Shown: positions 32,767 through 38,728 of the stretch, piece by piece
How positions within the stretch are numbered: the stretch's first letter is position 1
Layout of the letters: each line of letters starts with the position of its first letter
From: Polaromonas sp.
Lineage (GTDB): Bacteria; Pseudomonadota; Gammaproteobacteria; Burkholderiales; Burkholderiaceae_C
Reading direction: 5' to 3'
Assembly (NCBI GenBank): GCA_043777795.1
Contig: JAYWHJ010000090.1
Span: forward strand, 2,687 to 66,686
DNA length: 64,000 nucleotides
Translations under genes and position numbers: made by a program
Notes under the pieces: generated by a model
The model's input: only the letters and a program-made list of their open reading frames with translations
Databases searched by the model: none
Told to the model about the DNA's origin: nothing

Positions 32767-34265
<1,499 letters not shown>

Positions 34266-34269
<4 letters not shown>

Positions 34270-34736
34270 ATACGAATACCAAAGCTGGGGATTTTTTGAA
34301 CGCAGAGGGCGTGAAGGTTGCGCAAAGTGCGCTGAAGGAATACCAAAAAGACAGTGAAGATTTTGAGAATGATTTTTCGCATGAAATTATTGGCGCGGCC
34401 GTAGAAGTTCAGCGAGTGTTAGGTGCAGGACTGCTGCAAAGTGCTTATGCTGCGGCCTTTGCAGTGGAGTTGAACGAGCGTGAGCTGGCGTTCGAGCGCG
34501 AAGTGCCTGTAGAGGCTTGGTACAAAGATAAACCATTGGGCGTCGCCTATCGCGCAGACTTCATCGTTGAAGGCAAAGTGATTGTTGAACTCAAAGCACT
34601 GGAAGCAGTAACAGAGTTGCACCGCGCCCAGCTGCTTTCGTACCTCAGGGTATCGGGTTTGAAACTGGGCTTACTCATTAACTTCCATACCTTCCCAGTA
34701 GTCAAAGGCATCCACCGATTGGTCAATAAGCTATGA
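34266..34736 (+). CDS. GxxExxY family protein (PD-(D/E)XK nuclease-like fold)
   Basis: EIIGAAVEVQRVLGAGLLQSAYAAAFAVEL...DFIVEGKVIVELKA...HRAQLLSYLRVSGLKLGLLINF. The ATG overlaps the trpE stop. The first 30 or so residues are encoded by the left inverted repeat. Confidence 0.75.
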
Positions 34737-34824
34737 AAACTACAAATCCAAACTTTGGCTGTTTTTTGTCTTCTTCTGCGCGCTTTGCGAAACCCTCGCG
34801 CCCTCTGCATTCAAAAAATCCCCG
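34287..34824 (+). mobile_element. Inverted-repeat-bounded cassette carrying the GxxExxY ORF
   Basis: 34287-34337 (GGGGATTTTTTGAACGCAGAGGGCGTGAAGGTTGCGCAAAGTGCGCTGAAG) matches the reverse complement of 34774-34824 at 45/51 positions (manual count). Weaker complementarity continues about 30 bp inward. Confidence 0.6.
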
Positions 34825-34842
34825 TATTAAGGTCTGAGCATC

Positions 34843-35430
34843 ATGAAACTCTTAATGATCGACAACTACGACAGCTTCACCTTCAATATCGTCCAGTACT
34901 TTGGCGAGCTGGGTGCCGATGTCACTACCTTGCGTAACGACGAAGTGAGCGTTGAAGAACTAGACCAGCAATTCAAAGCAGGTAAGTTTGAAAGACTTTG
35001 CATCTCCCCCGGCCCGTGTTCGCCAAATGAAGCTGGCATCTCTGTCGCCGCCATCAAGCATTTTGCGGGCAAGCTACCCATCTTGGGCGTATGCCTGGGA
35101 CACCAGGCTATTGGCGCAGCGTTTGGCGGGCGGATTGTCCGCGCGCAAGAGCTCATGCACGGCAAGACCAGCGTGATTACCACCACGCAAGAAGGCGTCT
35201 TCAAAGACCTGCCTGTGCAGTTTACGGTTAACCGCTACCACTCATTGGCGATTGAGCCTGGTAGCTGCCCTAAAGAGCTTTCAGTGACTGCCAAGACCGA
35301 CGACGGAGAAATCATGGGTGTGCGGCACATGGGCTTTGCGCATGCGGTGCGCATTGAGGGAGTGCAGTTTCATCCGGAAAGCATCTTGACAGAGCATGGT
35401 CACGCGATGCTTGGGAATTTTTTGAGTTAA
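34843..35430 (+). CDS. trpG: Anthranilate synthase component II (glutamine amidotransferase)
   Basis: [16 protein letters not shown]...GVCLGHQAI...GVQFHPES. Confidence 0.92.
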
Positions 35431-35441
35431 GGTTTTAGGGA

Positions 35442-35663
35442 GGGGACGTTTTGAACGCACAGGGCGCGAAGGTTACGCGAAGGGCGCAAACGGAATACCA
35501 AAAAGAAAAAAAGAAAAAATGAAAAAATGAAAAGTATGAGAACAACAGTTTTCATAGTGTCGAATGCGCAGGCCTGCAAAGGCATTCAATTTTCTTGTTT
35601 TCATTTGTATTTTTGTTTTGGCTTTTTTCTGTCGTCTTCTGCGCTCTATGCGTTCAAAAAAAT
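35442..35663. mobile_element. Gene-less (MITE-like) derivative of the GxxExxY cassette ends
   Basis: The left end 35442-35505 closely matches 34287-34350. The right end 35620-35663 is a shortened inverted copy. The A/T-rich interior is itself an imperfect palindrome with a central GAATGC...GCATTC stem. Confidence 0.55.
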
Positions 35664-35693
35664 GGTATCTAATAACCTACGAACACTACAAAA

Positions 35694-36359
35694 ATGGACC
35701 TAGGCATTCAAAACATCTGGCTATTCATCCTCGCCGGCTGGGCACTGAACCTTACCCCCGGCCCGGATGTGTTTTACATGGTTACGCATTCGCTCAAGAG
35801 TGGTTGGCGTGCGGGCGCCGTGGCAGCAGCGGGCATCACCGCCGGTTGCTTTGTGCATGTGGCTGCGGCTACGCTAGGTCTGAGCGCGGTGATCACCGCT
35901 TCTGCCACGGCATTTGCCGTGCTCAAGTGGGTGGGGGCCGCGTATTTGGTGTATGTCGGCTGGCAAATGCTCAACTCCAAAGCCAATCCACGCGCTATGG
36001 ATAGCGTAGCTGCTCCCGCAGTTTTTAAATGCGCCAGTGGCCAAATAGACTATATAAAAGTCTTCAAGCAAGGTTTTCTGACCAATGTGCTCAACCCCAA
36101 AGTAGCTTTGTTCTTCTTGGCCTTTCTGCCGCAGTTCATCAGTCCTGCCGCAGCACAGCCGTGGCTGGCTTTTTTAACGCTGGGGGTACTGTTCAACGTG
36201 AACGCTATCCCGGTGAATTTGGGCTATGTGACCTTTGCTGCATGGGCGGGCCAGCGCCTCAACGTGGTGCAGCGCAGCCTGCATTGGCTTGAACGTGCGG
36301 CAGGCGCTTTGTTCATTGGTTTTGGGGTTAAATTAGCGCTCAGCGAAACCTCACTCTGA
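35694..36359 (+). CDS. LysE/RhtB family amino-acid exporter
   Basis: FILAGWALNLTPGPDVFYMV...FLTNVLNPKVALFFLAFLPQF. Confidence 0.8.
   Translation: MDLGIQNIWLFILAGWALNLTPGPDVFYMVTHSLKSGWRAGAVAAAGITAGCFVHVAAATLGLSAVITASATAFAVLKWVGAAYLVYVGWQMLNSKANPRAMDSVAAPAVFKCASGQIDYIKVFKQGFLTNVLNPKVALFFLAFLPQFISPAAAQPWLAFLTLGVLFNVNAIPVNLGYVTFAAWAGQRLNVVQRSLHWLERAAGALFIGFGVKLALSETSL
35994..36042 (-). repeat. Family-A repeat copy inside the LysE-family gene
   Basis: GCTATGGATAGCGTAGCTGCTCCCGCAGTTTTTAAATGCGCCAGTGGCC. Confidence 0.6.
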
Positions 36360-36375
36360 AGCCAGAAAGTACACC

Positions 36376-37479
36376 ATGCAAATCATTGACCTGCGCAGCG
36401 ACACTGTCACCCAGCCCACGCCCGCCATGCGCGCGGCCATGATGGCTGCCCCGCTGGGCGACGATGTGTTTGGTGACGACCCGACAGTCAATGCGCTGCA
36501 AGACAAAATTGCCTCCATGCTGGGCTTTGAGGCGGCGCTGTTTGTGCCTACGGGTACGCAGAGCAATCTGTGCGGTATTTTGGCGCACTGCCAGCGAGGG
36601 GACGAATACATTGTGGGCCAGATGGCGCACACCTACCGCTGGGAGGGCGGCGGCGCTGCGGTGCTGGGCAGCGTGCAGCCCCAGCCGCTGGCCCATGCAG
36701 CCGACGGCTCGCTGCCGCTGGCGGATATTGAGGCCGCTATCAAACCCGATGACGCGCACTTTGCCAAGTCGCGCTTGCTGGCGCTGGAGAACACCATTGG
36801 CGGCAAGCTGCTGCCATTTGAGTATGTGCAGGCGGCGACGCAGTTGGCCAAAAGCAAAGGTCTGGCTACGCATTTGGATGGCGCCCGGCTGTTCAATGCT
36901 GCGGTGGCTCAGGCGGCGTTAGTGCATCCCGTTCACTCCGACCCCTTCGACCCAGCTCAGGAAATGCCAAGCTCAGTCCGAACGGATTTGGCTCTCGCAC
37001 AGGCCCGCCGCATCGCCCAATGCTTCGACTCGGTCAGCGTCTGCTTCAGCAAGGGCTTGGGTGCGCCCGTGGGCTCGGCGCTGTGCGGCAGCAAAGCCTT
37101 CATTGCCAAAGCCCACCGCATCCGCAAAATGACGGGCGGTGGCATGCGGCAAGCGGGTTTTTTGGCGGCGGCGGCGCTGTATGCGCTAGACCACCATGTA
37201 GCACGCTTGGCGGACGACCATGCCTTGGCCAAGCGCTTGGGCGCAGCATTTGAAAAGATCGAAGGTGCCACGGTAGACCCGGTGCACAGCAACATCGTGT
37301 TTGTTGATTTGAACGGCCCCGCCAAAGCCAAAGCCGCAGGCTTGCTGGAGCACCTCAAGCAGCACGGCATCCTGGCCACCGGCCTGTACCGCCTGCGCTT
37401 TGTCACGCATTTGGATGTGCAAGCTGCGGGCGTGGAACGCGCGGTGGATGTTATCCACCGCTACTTTGCTACAGCTTAA
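36376..37479 (+). CDS. ltaE: Low-specificity L-threonine aldolase
   Basis: IDLRSDTVTQPTPAMR...GDDVFGDDPTVN...DSVSVCFSKGLGAPVGS. Confidence 0.85.
   Translation: MQIIDLRSDTVTQPTPAMRAAMMAAPLGDDVFGDDPTVNALQDKIASMLGFEAALFVPTGTQSNLCGILAHCQRGDEYIVGQMAHTYRWEGGGAAVLGSVQPQPLAHAADGSLPLADIEAAIKPDDAHFAKSRLLALENTIGGKLLPFEYVQAATQLAKSKGLATHLDGARLFNAAVAQAALVHPVHSDPFDPAQEMPSSVRTDLALAQARRIAQCFDSVSVCFSKGLGAPVGSALCGSKAFIAKAHRIRKMTGGGMRQAGFLAAAALYALDHHVARLADDHALAKRLGAAFEKIEGATVDPVHSNIVFVDLNGPAKAKAAGLLEHLKQHGILATGLYRLRFVTHLDVQAAGVERAVDVIHRYFATA
36929..36985. repeat. 57-nt in-frame repeat-like insert inside ltaE (CCGTTC...GAACGG ends)
   Basis: CCGTTCACTCCGACCCCTTCGACCCAGCTCAGGAAATGCCAAGCTCAGTCCGAACGG. It has an internal direct repeat CCNAGCTCAG x2 and encodes PVHSDPFDPAQEMPSSVRT just before the conserved DSVSVCFSKGLG block. 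Confidence 0.4.
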
Positions 37480-37513
37480 AGTCGCTGCCTAAGCGGTCAG
37501 GTCAGCGACCGGG

Positions 37514-38728
37514 TTAGCGGCCCAGTTCTTTGAGATAGGCGGTGCGAGCAGCCACGGCAGTATCTGTAAAGTCGGAGAACAAACCGTCGATACCGGCGCG
37601 GTAAAACTGCAGGTACTCGTTCTTCGGGTCGCCTGCGTAGTTCGCCGCTAGCCGCCCGTTCTCATTGCGCATGGTCCAGGTGTGCACTTGCAAACCAATC
37701 TTGTGTGCATCGGCAATCAGACTGCTGGCAGCTTGGGCGCTGGCGTCCGCATAGTTGACCACACCGTCCTTGTTGACATCTTGCATTTTTCCTGCGGCAT
37801 CGAACACGCCTTTGACGGGCACGATAAACGGCTTCCAGGGTGCGACGCCATCGGCGTAGGTTTTGATTTCGGCCAAACCTGCGGGGGTCACCATCGAGCC
37901 GAACAGCTCGGTTTTGCCAGCGCGGGTCCAGTCATAGGGGCGGTCAAATGGGGCGGCGAAGGTCACTGCGCCGGTTTTGAAGTCGTAGTCATCGCCATCG
38001 ACCAGCTGGAAGATGCGCACATTGGTTTTGGTACGCAGGTATTTGAGGTTGGACACTTCAAACGACTGGATGATGACGGGCGAGGTTTTTTGGGTGTAGC
38101 CGTACTCTGCAAGAATAGCCAGCAAGCGGTCTTCCAGCTTGAGGTTGGCGTCCACATGGTAGGTGGGGTGCTTGGTCTCCGGGTACACACCAACCACACG
38201 GCCTACTTTGGCACCTTCGGTCTTGGCGACGTCCAGTACTTCACGCAAGGTGGGAATACGGTATTTGCCGTTGAACGATTGGTCGCGGCTGGCAGTGGCT
38301 TGTTTGGCATAGAGGGTTTTGATTTGCGCCAAGGTAAAGTCGGTGGCAAACCAACCGGTCTCGGCTACGCCGTCTACCATGCGGGTGGTTTTAAGGCCAG
38401 CAAACTCGGGGCGGCTTTCTACATCGGTAGTGGACGTAATATTAGGTTCGTGCCGCGCAATCAGCTCGCCATCTTTGGTGGTCACCAAATCGGGTTCAAT
38501 AAAATCAGCGCCCATCTGGATCGCCATTTTGTAGCCCTCAATCGTGTGCTCAGGCAAATACCCTGCGACCCCTCGATGGCCTGCGACCAAGGGCTGTGCG
38601 CCATTGAGGGTGGAGAATGGCTGTTGGCTATCGCCGCCACACGCCGCCAACAAGGCAGCTGTGCTGATGCATGCGAGCGCCAGCGTCACGCGCCGCGTAG
38701 CGAAATGAATGTGTCCAGAGTGTTTCAT
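37514..38728 (-). CDS. Glycerophosphodiester phosphodiesterase (lipoprotein)
   Basis: Lipobox LLAACGG; VAGHRGVAGYLPEHT...GADFIEPDLV GDPD motifs. Confidence 0.8.
   Translation of the reverse strand: MKHSGHIHFATRRVTLALACISTAALLAACGGDSQQPFSTLNGAQPLVAGHRGVAGYLPEHTIEGYKMAIQMGADFIEPDLVTTKDGELIARHEPNITSTTDVESRPEFAGLKTTRMVDGVAETGWFATDFTLAQIKTLYAKQATASRDQSFNGKYRIPTLREVLDVAKTEGAKVGRVVGVYPETKHPTYHVDANLKLEDRLLAILAEYGYTQKTSPVIIQSFEVSNLKYLRTKTNVRIFQLVDGDDYDFKTGAVTFAAPFDRPYDWTRAGKTELFGSMVTPAGLAEIKTYADGVAPWKPFIVPVKGVFDAAGKMQDVNKDGVVNYADASAQAASSLIADAHKIGLQVHTWTMRNENGRLAANYAGDPKNEYLQFYRAGIDGLFSDFTDTAVAARTAYLKELGR

Follow-up and report, generated by a model that had tools for sequence, protein, structure and literature searches.

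A GxxExxY nuclease-fold gene framed by arms of a dispersed hairpin-repeat family between trpE and trpG of Polaromonas

Introduction

REPIN-RAYT systems consist of repetitive extragenic palindromic (REP) sequences and REP-associated tyrosine transposases, RAYTs (Bertels and Rainey, 2011; PMC3116915; PMC3337134). Bacterial MITEs (miniature transposable elements with inverted repeats) that have an autonomous partner include Correia/NEMIS, ERIC, and Nezha (reviewed in PMC10969869). A locus that can be compared with both is described here from Polaromonas sp. It lies within a stretch of 64,000 nucleotides (contig JAYWHJ010000090.1), referred to as the window, between trpE and trpG. An open reading frame (ORF) of the GxxExxY nuclease-fold family is found there between two inverted repeats, the arms, and the ORF and its arms are together called the cassette. 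A second element with such arms and no ORF follows trpG. Loci that were fetched from other genomes are labeled with L-numbers.

The locus resembles REPIN-RAYT systems in that there is a population of short extragenic hairpin-forming repeats, and one gene is framed by inverted copies of these repeats while the repeat population is dispersed and extragenic. The gene was seen a single time in each locus set (at trpE-trpG and nowhere else among the loci fetched), has held its place for a long time, and is under purifying selection, and no target-site duplication was seen at the sites compared. Unlike in REPIN-RAYT systems, the enzyme has a 120-residue PD-(D/E)XK domain, similar to Cas4 and lambda exonuclease, and not an HUH/Y1 (IS200-like) transposase. 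The arms are arrays of 9-11-nt direct units instead of a short palindromic REP, the gene is translated through its own repeat, and inheritance is not strictly vertical, since closely related hosts exchange cassette types. The likeness to MITEs lies in small, non-coding, intergenic, and co-transcribed elements of many copies, with an A/T-rich centre and terminal inverted repeats of about 50 nt, and in a longer ORF-bearing version with matching ends. Unlike the partners of MITEs, the ORF-bearing version has no recognisable DDE, serine, tyrosine, or HUH transposase and no target-site duplication was seen, and it stays at one fixed site in all relatives sampled. Because there is no HUH or other transposase domain, the feature of the enzyme that defines each of the two systems is absent.

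The function of GxxExxY/PF13366 proteins was listed as unknown in a survey of the superfamily (2012; PMC3424549), and no later paper that assigns one was found in the searched literature. That literature also held no nuclease-plus-hairpin-repeat pairing of this kind, and the arm unit motifs appeared in none of its relevant papers. The explanation preferred here, with a probability of roughly one half, is drawn by analogy. The cassette would be a nuclease-plus-hairpin unit in which the nuclease acts on the arms, as RAYTs do on REPINs or an autonomous element does on its MITEs. The structural part of this explanation, that the ORF and arms are one unit of a dispersed hairpin-repeat family, is highly probable. 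The enzymatic part, in which the spread of the arms would be driven by nuclease action on them, is offered tentatively and could well prove wrong.

Cassette and Arms

The ORF (34266..34736, + strand) encodes 156 amino acids, of which residues 1-35 are an arm-derived extension and residues 36-156 are the domain. Upstream of it is trpE (32767..34269, + strand), the gene for anthranilate synthase component I, which matches TIGR00564 with 542.7 bits (cut-off 517.7) as well as PF00425 and PF04715. Downstream is trpG (34843..35430, + strand), the gene for component II, which matches PF00117 and TIGR00566 (233.5 bits). The ATG of the ORF (34266-34268) and the TGA stop of trpE (34267-34269) overlap as ATGA. 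A first-pass annotation of the same DNA had placed a 156-codon GxxExxY ORF between trpE and trpG with its ATG on the trpE stop, and the Pfam and NCBIfam matches and the ATGA bear this out. It is the only GxxExxY ORF in the window.

The left arm (34287..34337, + strand) and the right arm (34773..34823, - strand) are 51 nt each and are complementary at 45/51 positions. The level of matching is as first described, but the right arm had been placed one base off. An arm profile (nhmmer) matched the left arm at 34288-34337 with an E of 5e-13, and beyond the right arm the family end motif CCCCGTATT continues to 34828. The best ungapped inverted-repeat score is 36, while 100 shuffles of the same 596 bases gave a mean of 9 and a maximum of 13. 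Each arm consists of about four units of 9-11 nt, of the type GCAGAGG / GCGNGAAGG in direct reading. In the minimum-free-energy fold, which has a z-score of -5.9, interrupted pairing extends about 25-30 nt inward of the arms. Both the reiterated sub-motifs and an inward symmetry of some 30 bp had been noticed in the first-pass annotation, and so had the translation of the left repeat into the protein. The left arm is read as residues 8-24 of the N-terminal extension of 35 residues (codons 1-35; 34266..34370, + strand) that precedes the domain.

The heptamer TTAAGGT is present at 34827-34833 and at 35427-35433, as the first-pass annotation had noted. The first copy overlaps the conserved element end CCCCGTATT and the ribosome-binding site of trpG, an AAGG that is found just past the family end motif and 6 nt beyond the 51-nt arm. 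The second contains the trpG stop codon, TAA. In the relative L015, which is without the second element, the corresponding position is taken by TTAAGGC, a close variant. Since there are ordinary explanations for both copies and the variant is found in the element-free L015, TTAAGGT is no insertion scar and no target-site feature.

Within 34100-35800 no terminator-like site was found, and the one promoter-like match does not exceed the chance expectation. The cassette is thus without a promoter-like or terminator-like signal of its own. Given this and the ATGA overlap with trpE, read-through and translational coupling are the most likely route to its expression. For operon biology, this would be a case where translational coupling keeps a nuclease cassette in an essential biosynthetic operon, and the cassette type there has been turned over among related hosts.

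Dispersed Hairpin Repeats

The second element (35442..35661, no strand assigned) was identified by BLAST and by its fold as an ORF-less imperfect palindrome of 220 bp between trpG and a LysE-family exporter gene. This agrees with the second copy that had been reported earlier. Its left arm is at 35442-35506 and its right arm, which is one unit shorter, is at 35617-35661. The two are joined by an inner A/T-rich palindrome (35506-35533 / 35590-35617). The left arm has 85% identity over 65 nt with that of the first element, and the whole element folds as a single long hairpin (z -5.6). Over the 64 kb, the arm profile gave three arm matches, and the shortened right arm of the second element was found through BLAST only. 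The second element is absent from the same gap in L015 (a gap of 25 bp), L013, L002, L259, and L258. A 22-nt match between the end of the ORF (34725-34746) and a stretch to the right of the second element (35671-35692) has an E of 0.14 and was taken as chance.

Similar arms were searched for in one genome per species with the pattern TTTTGAAYGCANAGRRCGYRARGR, which can see one arm type only. The matches listed fall in at least 117 stretches, mostly in metagenome-assembled genomes (MAGs) of Polaromonas and in other Comamonadaceae (Ramlibacter, Brachymonas, and other bins). At least 34 pairs of plus and minus arms were found, which are 32 ORF-less elements and the arm-framed cassettes of the window and L107. 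Among the matches listed, the 32 ORF-less elements are about 120-290 bp long, lie in short intergenic gaps, and have variable A/T-rich loops. As a consensus, the arm reads (AATRC)GGGGATTTTTTGAACGCAGAGGGCGCGAAGGTTTCGCAGAGRGCGCAGAAG, after which come A-rich units and the variable A/T-rich loop. With the arm profile, at least 184 arms, those of the cassettes included, were found in the 668 kb of listed loci. Many near-identical arms are at unrelated loci, and orthologous ORF-less copies are kept across Polaromonas species (for example, L027/L053/L094 and L095/L130). The second element is therefore of the MITE kind in that it is short and non-coding, has terminal inverted repeats, and belongs to a family with many copies in related genomes.

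The presence of ORF-less copies varies between relatives. For example, the gap between an aldolase gene and trpD has an element in L013 and L014, a diverged variant in L003, and only a 19-nt remnant of the right end in L002. In these empty/filled comparisons (L015, L002, L003, and L013) the sequences are only about 84% identical. No direct repeat was found flanking the elements, whose T-run and A-run ends mask short duplications. This 19-nt remnant, TTCAAAAAATCCCCGTCTT, is crossed by the last codons of the aldolase-like gene (L002 6970-6995), so that part of a lost element has become coding.

A GxxExxY ORF is present in 3/117 of the listed arm-bearing loci, and all three are linked to trpE. 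The constant co-occurrence of repeats and GxxExxY genes, which had been put forward as a check, is thus not observed. On the other hand, the repeats are not confined to this locus, and confinement was one of the two outcomes that the first-pass annotation had named as refuting it. A locus-specific or chance inverted repeat around an anciently fixed gene, with no repeat family behind it, would agree with the fixed synteny of all lineages sampled. It is refuted by the shuffle control, by more than 100 other arm loci, and by distant GxxExxY genes that are framed likewise, and has next to no probability.

As the main alternative, the arms could act as RNA. They would form a stem in the trp transcript that loops out the ORF, with a role in RNase III processing, mRNA stability, or translational control. 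The ORF-less copies would then be RNA hairpins of similar role, and the nuclease would take no part in their spread. The models for this are the ORF-bearing 23S rRNA intervening sequences and the fold-back inhibition of IS10. Intervening sequences of 23S rRNA with four-helix-bundle 'S23p' ORFs were reportedly described by Ralph and McClelland in 1993. The cassette is like them in having a small ORF in a long stem of inverted repeats within a highly transcribed host unit. It is unlike them in its protein family, its mRNA context, and the lack of a strand bias for RNA pairing.

Several features of the elements agree with a role as RNA. They lie in transcribed intergenic gaps, often at a distance of 10-30 nt from the start codon that follows. 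The predicted stems are stable (z -5.9 and -5.6), the cassette has no promoter or terminator of its own, distant cassettes have their start codon at the left arm or within it, and complementarity is held despite sequence change. However, the elements are present in all combinations of gene orientation, convergent and divergent included. There is no G:U bias on the sense strand either, with 45 wobble-compatible arm mismatches in sense and 57 in antisense over 19 co-directional contexts (p 0.28). No Rfam family matches; a search of the window gave noise only (no score above 28 bits, where the gathering score is 211), and 19 related loci gave no matches. A role as RNA would also leave unexplained the multiplication to many loci and the link between arm type and nuclease type, and it appears unlikely.

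A few observations concern the ORF-less elements themselves. One Polaromonas sub-family (L038 6802-7047, L078 3437-3671, L096 2464-2706, and L111 1520-1803) has a conserved core, ...AATGTCAGC...ATGGTCAT...TGCTAT.AAA..., where a variable A/T-rich loop is usually found. This core could be a small RNA or a promoter that is carried as cargo. Directly past trpG in Polaromonas GFS_3817 (L109 6264-6380), two arm types are found in tandem, GAACGCAGAGG and then TTCCGGCCGCGAAGG, and the TTCCGGCCGCGAAGG type is the one that frames the trpE-linked cassette of GFS_3817 itself.

The arms are also not the intergenic beta-proteobacterial repeat element BRE, which is reported from Polaromonas sp. JS666 (as many as 29 copies) and from other members of the Comamonadaceae (Hot et al., 2011; PMC3110155). 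The BRE sequence (TTTGCCGCGGGCCGCCCAAGGCAAAAAAGCCCCC...) is unrelated, tandem, and about 69% G+C. None of four arm-unit strings (GCGAAGG, GCAGAGG, and their complements) is present in the listed BRE copies (PMC3110155).

GxxExxY Protein

The ORF matches PF13366 (PDDEXK_3) with an E of 4e-37 and 127.6 bits (cut-off 22), from residue 36 to 151 and over profile positions 2-116 of 117. This is the sole Pfam family on the ORF at E <= 0.001. With 132.9 bits for TIGR04256 (cut-off 35), family membership by profile holds. The family is large, with 15,629 clusters at 50% identity. Many of its representatives are 240-295 residues long and contain two tandem GxxExxY domains (P0121-P0145 and others), and these may be fused or duplicated forms.

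An AlphaFold2 model built on an alignment of 146 sequences has a mean predicted local distance difference test (pLDDT) score of 83.5. The blocks of the domain score at least 86, mostly above 93, and residues 1-29 are below 50 and predicted to be disordered. The modeled core, alpha-beta-beta-beta-alpha-beta, contains the D...(D/E)xK residues and places the protein in the PD-(D/E)XK superfamily. In the same alignment, D98, E108, and K110 are each either invariant or conserved in 90% or more of the sequences. The best fold matches in the PDB are weak (E 9e-3, TM-score 0.41-0.47) and are to Cas4 SSO0001, an LHK-exonuclease, lambda exonuclease, and the AddAB nuclease. PADLOC gave a weak match to a Cas4 profile and nothing else, and no match was found for the protein in PHROGs or in a sequence search of the PDB.

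The signature motif of the family is altered in the window, where it reads G55-L-L-Q58-S-A-Y61 and departs from a strict G-x-x-E-x-x-Y. Codon 58 is CAA (34437-34439) and encodes Q, while E58 is found in at least 90% of the 146 aligned homologs. Because the same protein sequence was found, identical, on five contigs, Q58 is a real variant and no read error.

History of the trpE-trpG Site

The trpE-trpG junction is filled by an intact GxxExxY ORF in 11/11 of the lineages sampled, from Polaromonas to Variovorax (the window, L015, L013, L002, L259, L257, L258, L109, L012/L113, L107, L010, which is Variovorax, and L011). No empty or decayed site was found among the 11. The first-pass annotation had described an insertion into a normally adjacent gene pair and had asked for a comparison of strains for empty sites; a recent insertion is not supported by this occupancy.

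Selection on the cassette differs between its parts. In type A cassettes (those of the window, L015, L013, and L002), the ratio of nonsynonymous to synonymous substitution rates (dN/dS) was taken from the window against the three close relatives. It is 0.010-0.016 for the nuclease domain, where dS is saturated (1.8), and 0.04-0.09 for trpE and 0.04-0.07 for trpG. Purifying selection acts very strongly on the nuclease domain, which also speaks against a recent insertion. Codons 1-35 have a dS of 0.32-0.36 and a dN/dS of 0.15-0.45. As dS is low and dN/dS is higher in these codons, the left arm is conserved as nucleic acid and not as peptide.

The cassette does not simply follow its host. In hosts whose TrpE proteins are 89-92% identical, the cassettes are 95-98% (type A), 74-76% (L259), or 68-70% (L257) identical. 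L258 has a TrpE of 82% and a cassette of 47% identity, arms of CACAGAGG units, and a distinct junction, TGATG. Simple vertical inheritance of the cassette was considered and rejected, since cassette identity fails to follow TrpE once further lineages are compared. Ten trpE-linked loci have at least five arm types, each cassette type has its own arm sequence, and complementarity within a locus is 88-97%. The arms are a dispersed, multi-copy, and polymorphic family that is kept complementary while its sequence changes between lineages. Spearman's rho is 0.71 between arms and nuclease, 0.36 between arms and TrpE, and 0.22 between nuclease and TrpE, for pairs that are non-independent, so that the p-values are nominal. 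Arm type shifts with nuclease type, independently of the flanking trp genes. Because arm similarity tracks the nuclease and not TrpE, the ORF and arms behave as one unit that is exchanged or replaced at a fixed site. This is not the ancient synteny without repeat conservation that was also considered at the outset; the synteny is fixed, but the repeats are conserved and co-vary with nuclease type across the trpE-linked loci compared.

The left junction GGAATGAATAC is common to arm types A, B, C, E, and G. As five types share it, it suggests that cassettes are replaced by recombination inside the site, rather than by repeated de novo insertion, except perhaps in L258. The trpE-trpG junction is a long-held site where cassette types replace one another, and it holds no fresh insertion. 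Of the selfish or mobile cassette that was first proposed, what remains is a unit of a mobile-like family, with its ORF-less copies, its presence and absence, and its distant framed genes; the fresh insertion is abandoned.

A history of this kind can be read in another way, as that of a free-standing, homing-type GxxExxY gene that enters the loop of a hairpin. The arms would be its target and not its ends, and the hairpin repeats would multiply by other means. PD-(D/E)XK homing endonucleases exist, for example I-Ssp6803I. Like free-standing homing endonuclease genes, the ORF is a small nuclease gene between conserved, normally adjacent genes, needs host transcription, and has a phylogeny that is incongruent with the flanking genes. 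It is always where ORF-less copies have their variable loop, and ORF-less copies far outnumber ORF-bearing ones. Unlike such genes, it leaves no empty or decayed sites in the 11 lineages, is under very strong purifying selection, and sits between long inverted repeats that are found without the gene as well. A half-inserted or decayed ORF was not seen in any hairpin. In distant lineages the left arm is used as coding sequence, with the ATG at its outer edge, and the co-variation of arm type with nuclease type fits ends that travel with the gene better than a pre-existing target. Homing into a hairpin is therefore considered very improbable.

The stability of the site may instead indicate that the system has been domesticated by the host and is no longer mobile. 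The hairpins would then have an architectural or regulatory role, like REPs, and their maintenance or processing would fall to GxxExxY as a host nuclease. Differences in cassette type would come from homologous recombination between strains through trpE and trpG. The occupancy of all 11 sites, a dN/dS of the nuclease domain that is tighter than that of trpE or trpG, the left junction GGAATGAATAC conserved over arm types A, B, C, E, and G, and the orthologous ORF-less copies kept across Polaromonas species can all be explained this way. So can the near absence of the cassette from viral contigs; among 2.9 million of them, one GxxExxY relative and one arm match were found. However, ORF-less copies are present or absent among close relatives, near-identical arms are found at many unrelated loci, and the same architecture is repeated across phyla, and a purely domestic role is distinctly unlikely. 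It overlaps with the preferred nuclease-plus-hairpin reading, because RAYTs too are regarded as domesticated.

Proposed Mechanism

In the nuclease-plus-hairpin reading, the GxxExxY gene lies within the loop of a long repeat that can form a hairpin, and 35442-35661 is one of the ORF-less members of the repeat family. The nuclease would recognize the arrays of 9-11-nt units, or the hairpin or cruciform that they form in DNA. A hairpin formed on single-stranded DNA, or else a cruciform that is extruded, would be a plausible substrate; the Cas4- and lambda-exonuclease-like fold makes single-stranded DNA likely. Cleavage would help the cassette, and the ORF-less elements derived from it, to be copied, replaced, or moved. 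No Pfam transposase family was found on the genes called in the fetched cassette neighborhoods, as the first-pass annotation had remarked for this locus. Its suggestion that GxxExxY itself might be the partner activity fits the co-variation of arms and nuclease.

Several observations weigh against this reading, in addition to the nominal p-values of the correlations. With Q58 in place of the motif glutamate, the window copy may be catalytically weakened. Occupancy in 11/11 lineages without a decayed copy is unlike a freely moving selfish element, and there are only two elements within the 64-kb window. No target-site duplication and no clean isogenic pair of empty and filled sites were found in the comparison of L015, L002, L003, and L013. 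Genomes that have a trpE-linked cassette of arm type B or C keep many ORF-less copies of the GAACGCAGAGG type, which is like type A (L259 with L090, L257 with L045, and L109). Because of these GAACGCAGAGG-type copies, a pairing of one nuclease with one arm type is not shown. Nuclease action and transposition themselves rest on inference.

If the nuclease mobilizes or maintains the repeats, the cassette would represent a second, mechanistically independent long-term partnership of repeat and enzyme of the REPIN-RAYT type, and possibly a new chemistry of transposition or gene conversion. For GxxExxY/PF13366, a nucleic-acid partner, namely unit arrays and abundant ORF-less hairpins in several phyla, would give a function that can be tested directly.

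Occurrence in Other Bacteria

Framing by arms can also be recognized in other GxxExxY genes. Among 111 single-domain representatives of the family, 67 have an N-terminal extension of at least 12 residues. In 17 of the 67 the extension contains peptides with a periodicity of three residues, such as HHRGTEGTEDTE, HRRGAEDAEG, and NRQDAKDAK. As a control, the same regular expression matches 4/111 within the domain part. Three distant genes (L135, L136, and L260; about 41-42% identical) were picked by protein similarity alone, and each has inverted arms. In L135 the arms, 46 nt long and 93% complementary, are made up of four CACGAAGGA units, and the left one contains the ATG. L136 has TTCACCACAGAGCCACGGAGG and its complement (21 nt, 95%), with the ATG at or in the left arm, and L260 has inverted arms of 48 nt that are 79% complementary.

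A second arm type, TTCACCACAGAGGNCACAGAGG, was used to scan metagenomes. At least 141 arms were found, of which at least 61 are in ORF-less hairpins of no more than 350 nt, and at least two independent loci have a nested GxxExxY gene. Among the metagenome matches listed, no other cargo recurs inside the arms, and the read-through ORFs are translations of hairpins or neighboring genes. Hairpins of the same unit type are present in Terriglobia, Pyrinomonadaceae, Treponema, and human-gut contigs as well. Arrays of the same units with no obvious partner arm were found in Phycisphaerales, cyanobacteria, and Bacteroidota.

It is possible that GxxExxY proteins in general are dedicated nucleases of cross-phylum hairpin repeats (inverted 9-nt C-R-C-R-R-A-G-G arrays), which they would copy or move by a PD-(D/E)XK-based mechanism unlike that of known transposases. 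So broad a role is doubtful. If it is true, the annotated 'HRGTEDTE' and 'LCVLCG' pseudo-peptides would be translations of these elements.

Short hairpins of 9-nt units (GAACGCAAAG... and CACAGAGGA...) were seen at L086 335-430, L126 116-190, L019 6785-6910, and L073 3400-3520, and further ones at L166 2191-2270, L170, and L157, a human-gut contig. Their hosts are Pyrinomonadaceae, Treponema, Terriglobia, a Pseudomonadota MAG, and gut metagenomes. The fetched stretches around them contain no GxxExxY gene. No Rfam family covers the seven short 9-nt-unit hairpins scanned, among which L073 was not included.

Gene Neighborhoods and Annotation

In the window, trpG and the second element are followed by the LysE-family exporter gene (35694..36359, + strand; PF01810), a threonine-aldolase-like gene, and then a GDPD gene on the opposite strand. 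In a comparison of 36376-38728 with L002, L010, L258, and L257, the genes trpD and trpC, which follow in relatives, are not adjacent in the window. At the corresponding place, L257 possesses an N6/N4 methyltransferase and an EcoO109I-like restriction enzyme.

The elements can affect the annotation of genomes, as they lead to gene calls with short ORFs that are spurious or with unusual N-terminal extensions. Gene callers and mechanical ORF lists placed such short ORFs in ORF-less elements or over the right arm of a cassette in L013 (6995-7243), in L008 and L009 (4450-4545), and in the window (35527-35703). Peptides such as LCVLCALCG, SVSSVSSVV, and HHRGHRG result when the arms are translated by read-through. 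A sucA RNA motif (RF01070, 83 bits), which is unrelated to the cassette and its repeats, was found in a Comamonadaceae locus (L036 2613-2695).

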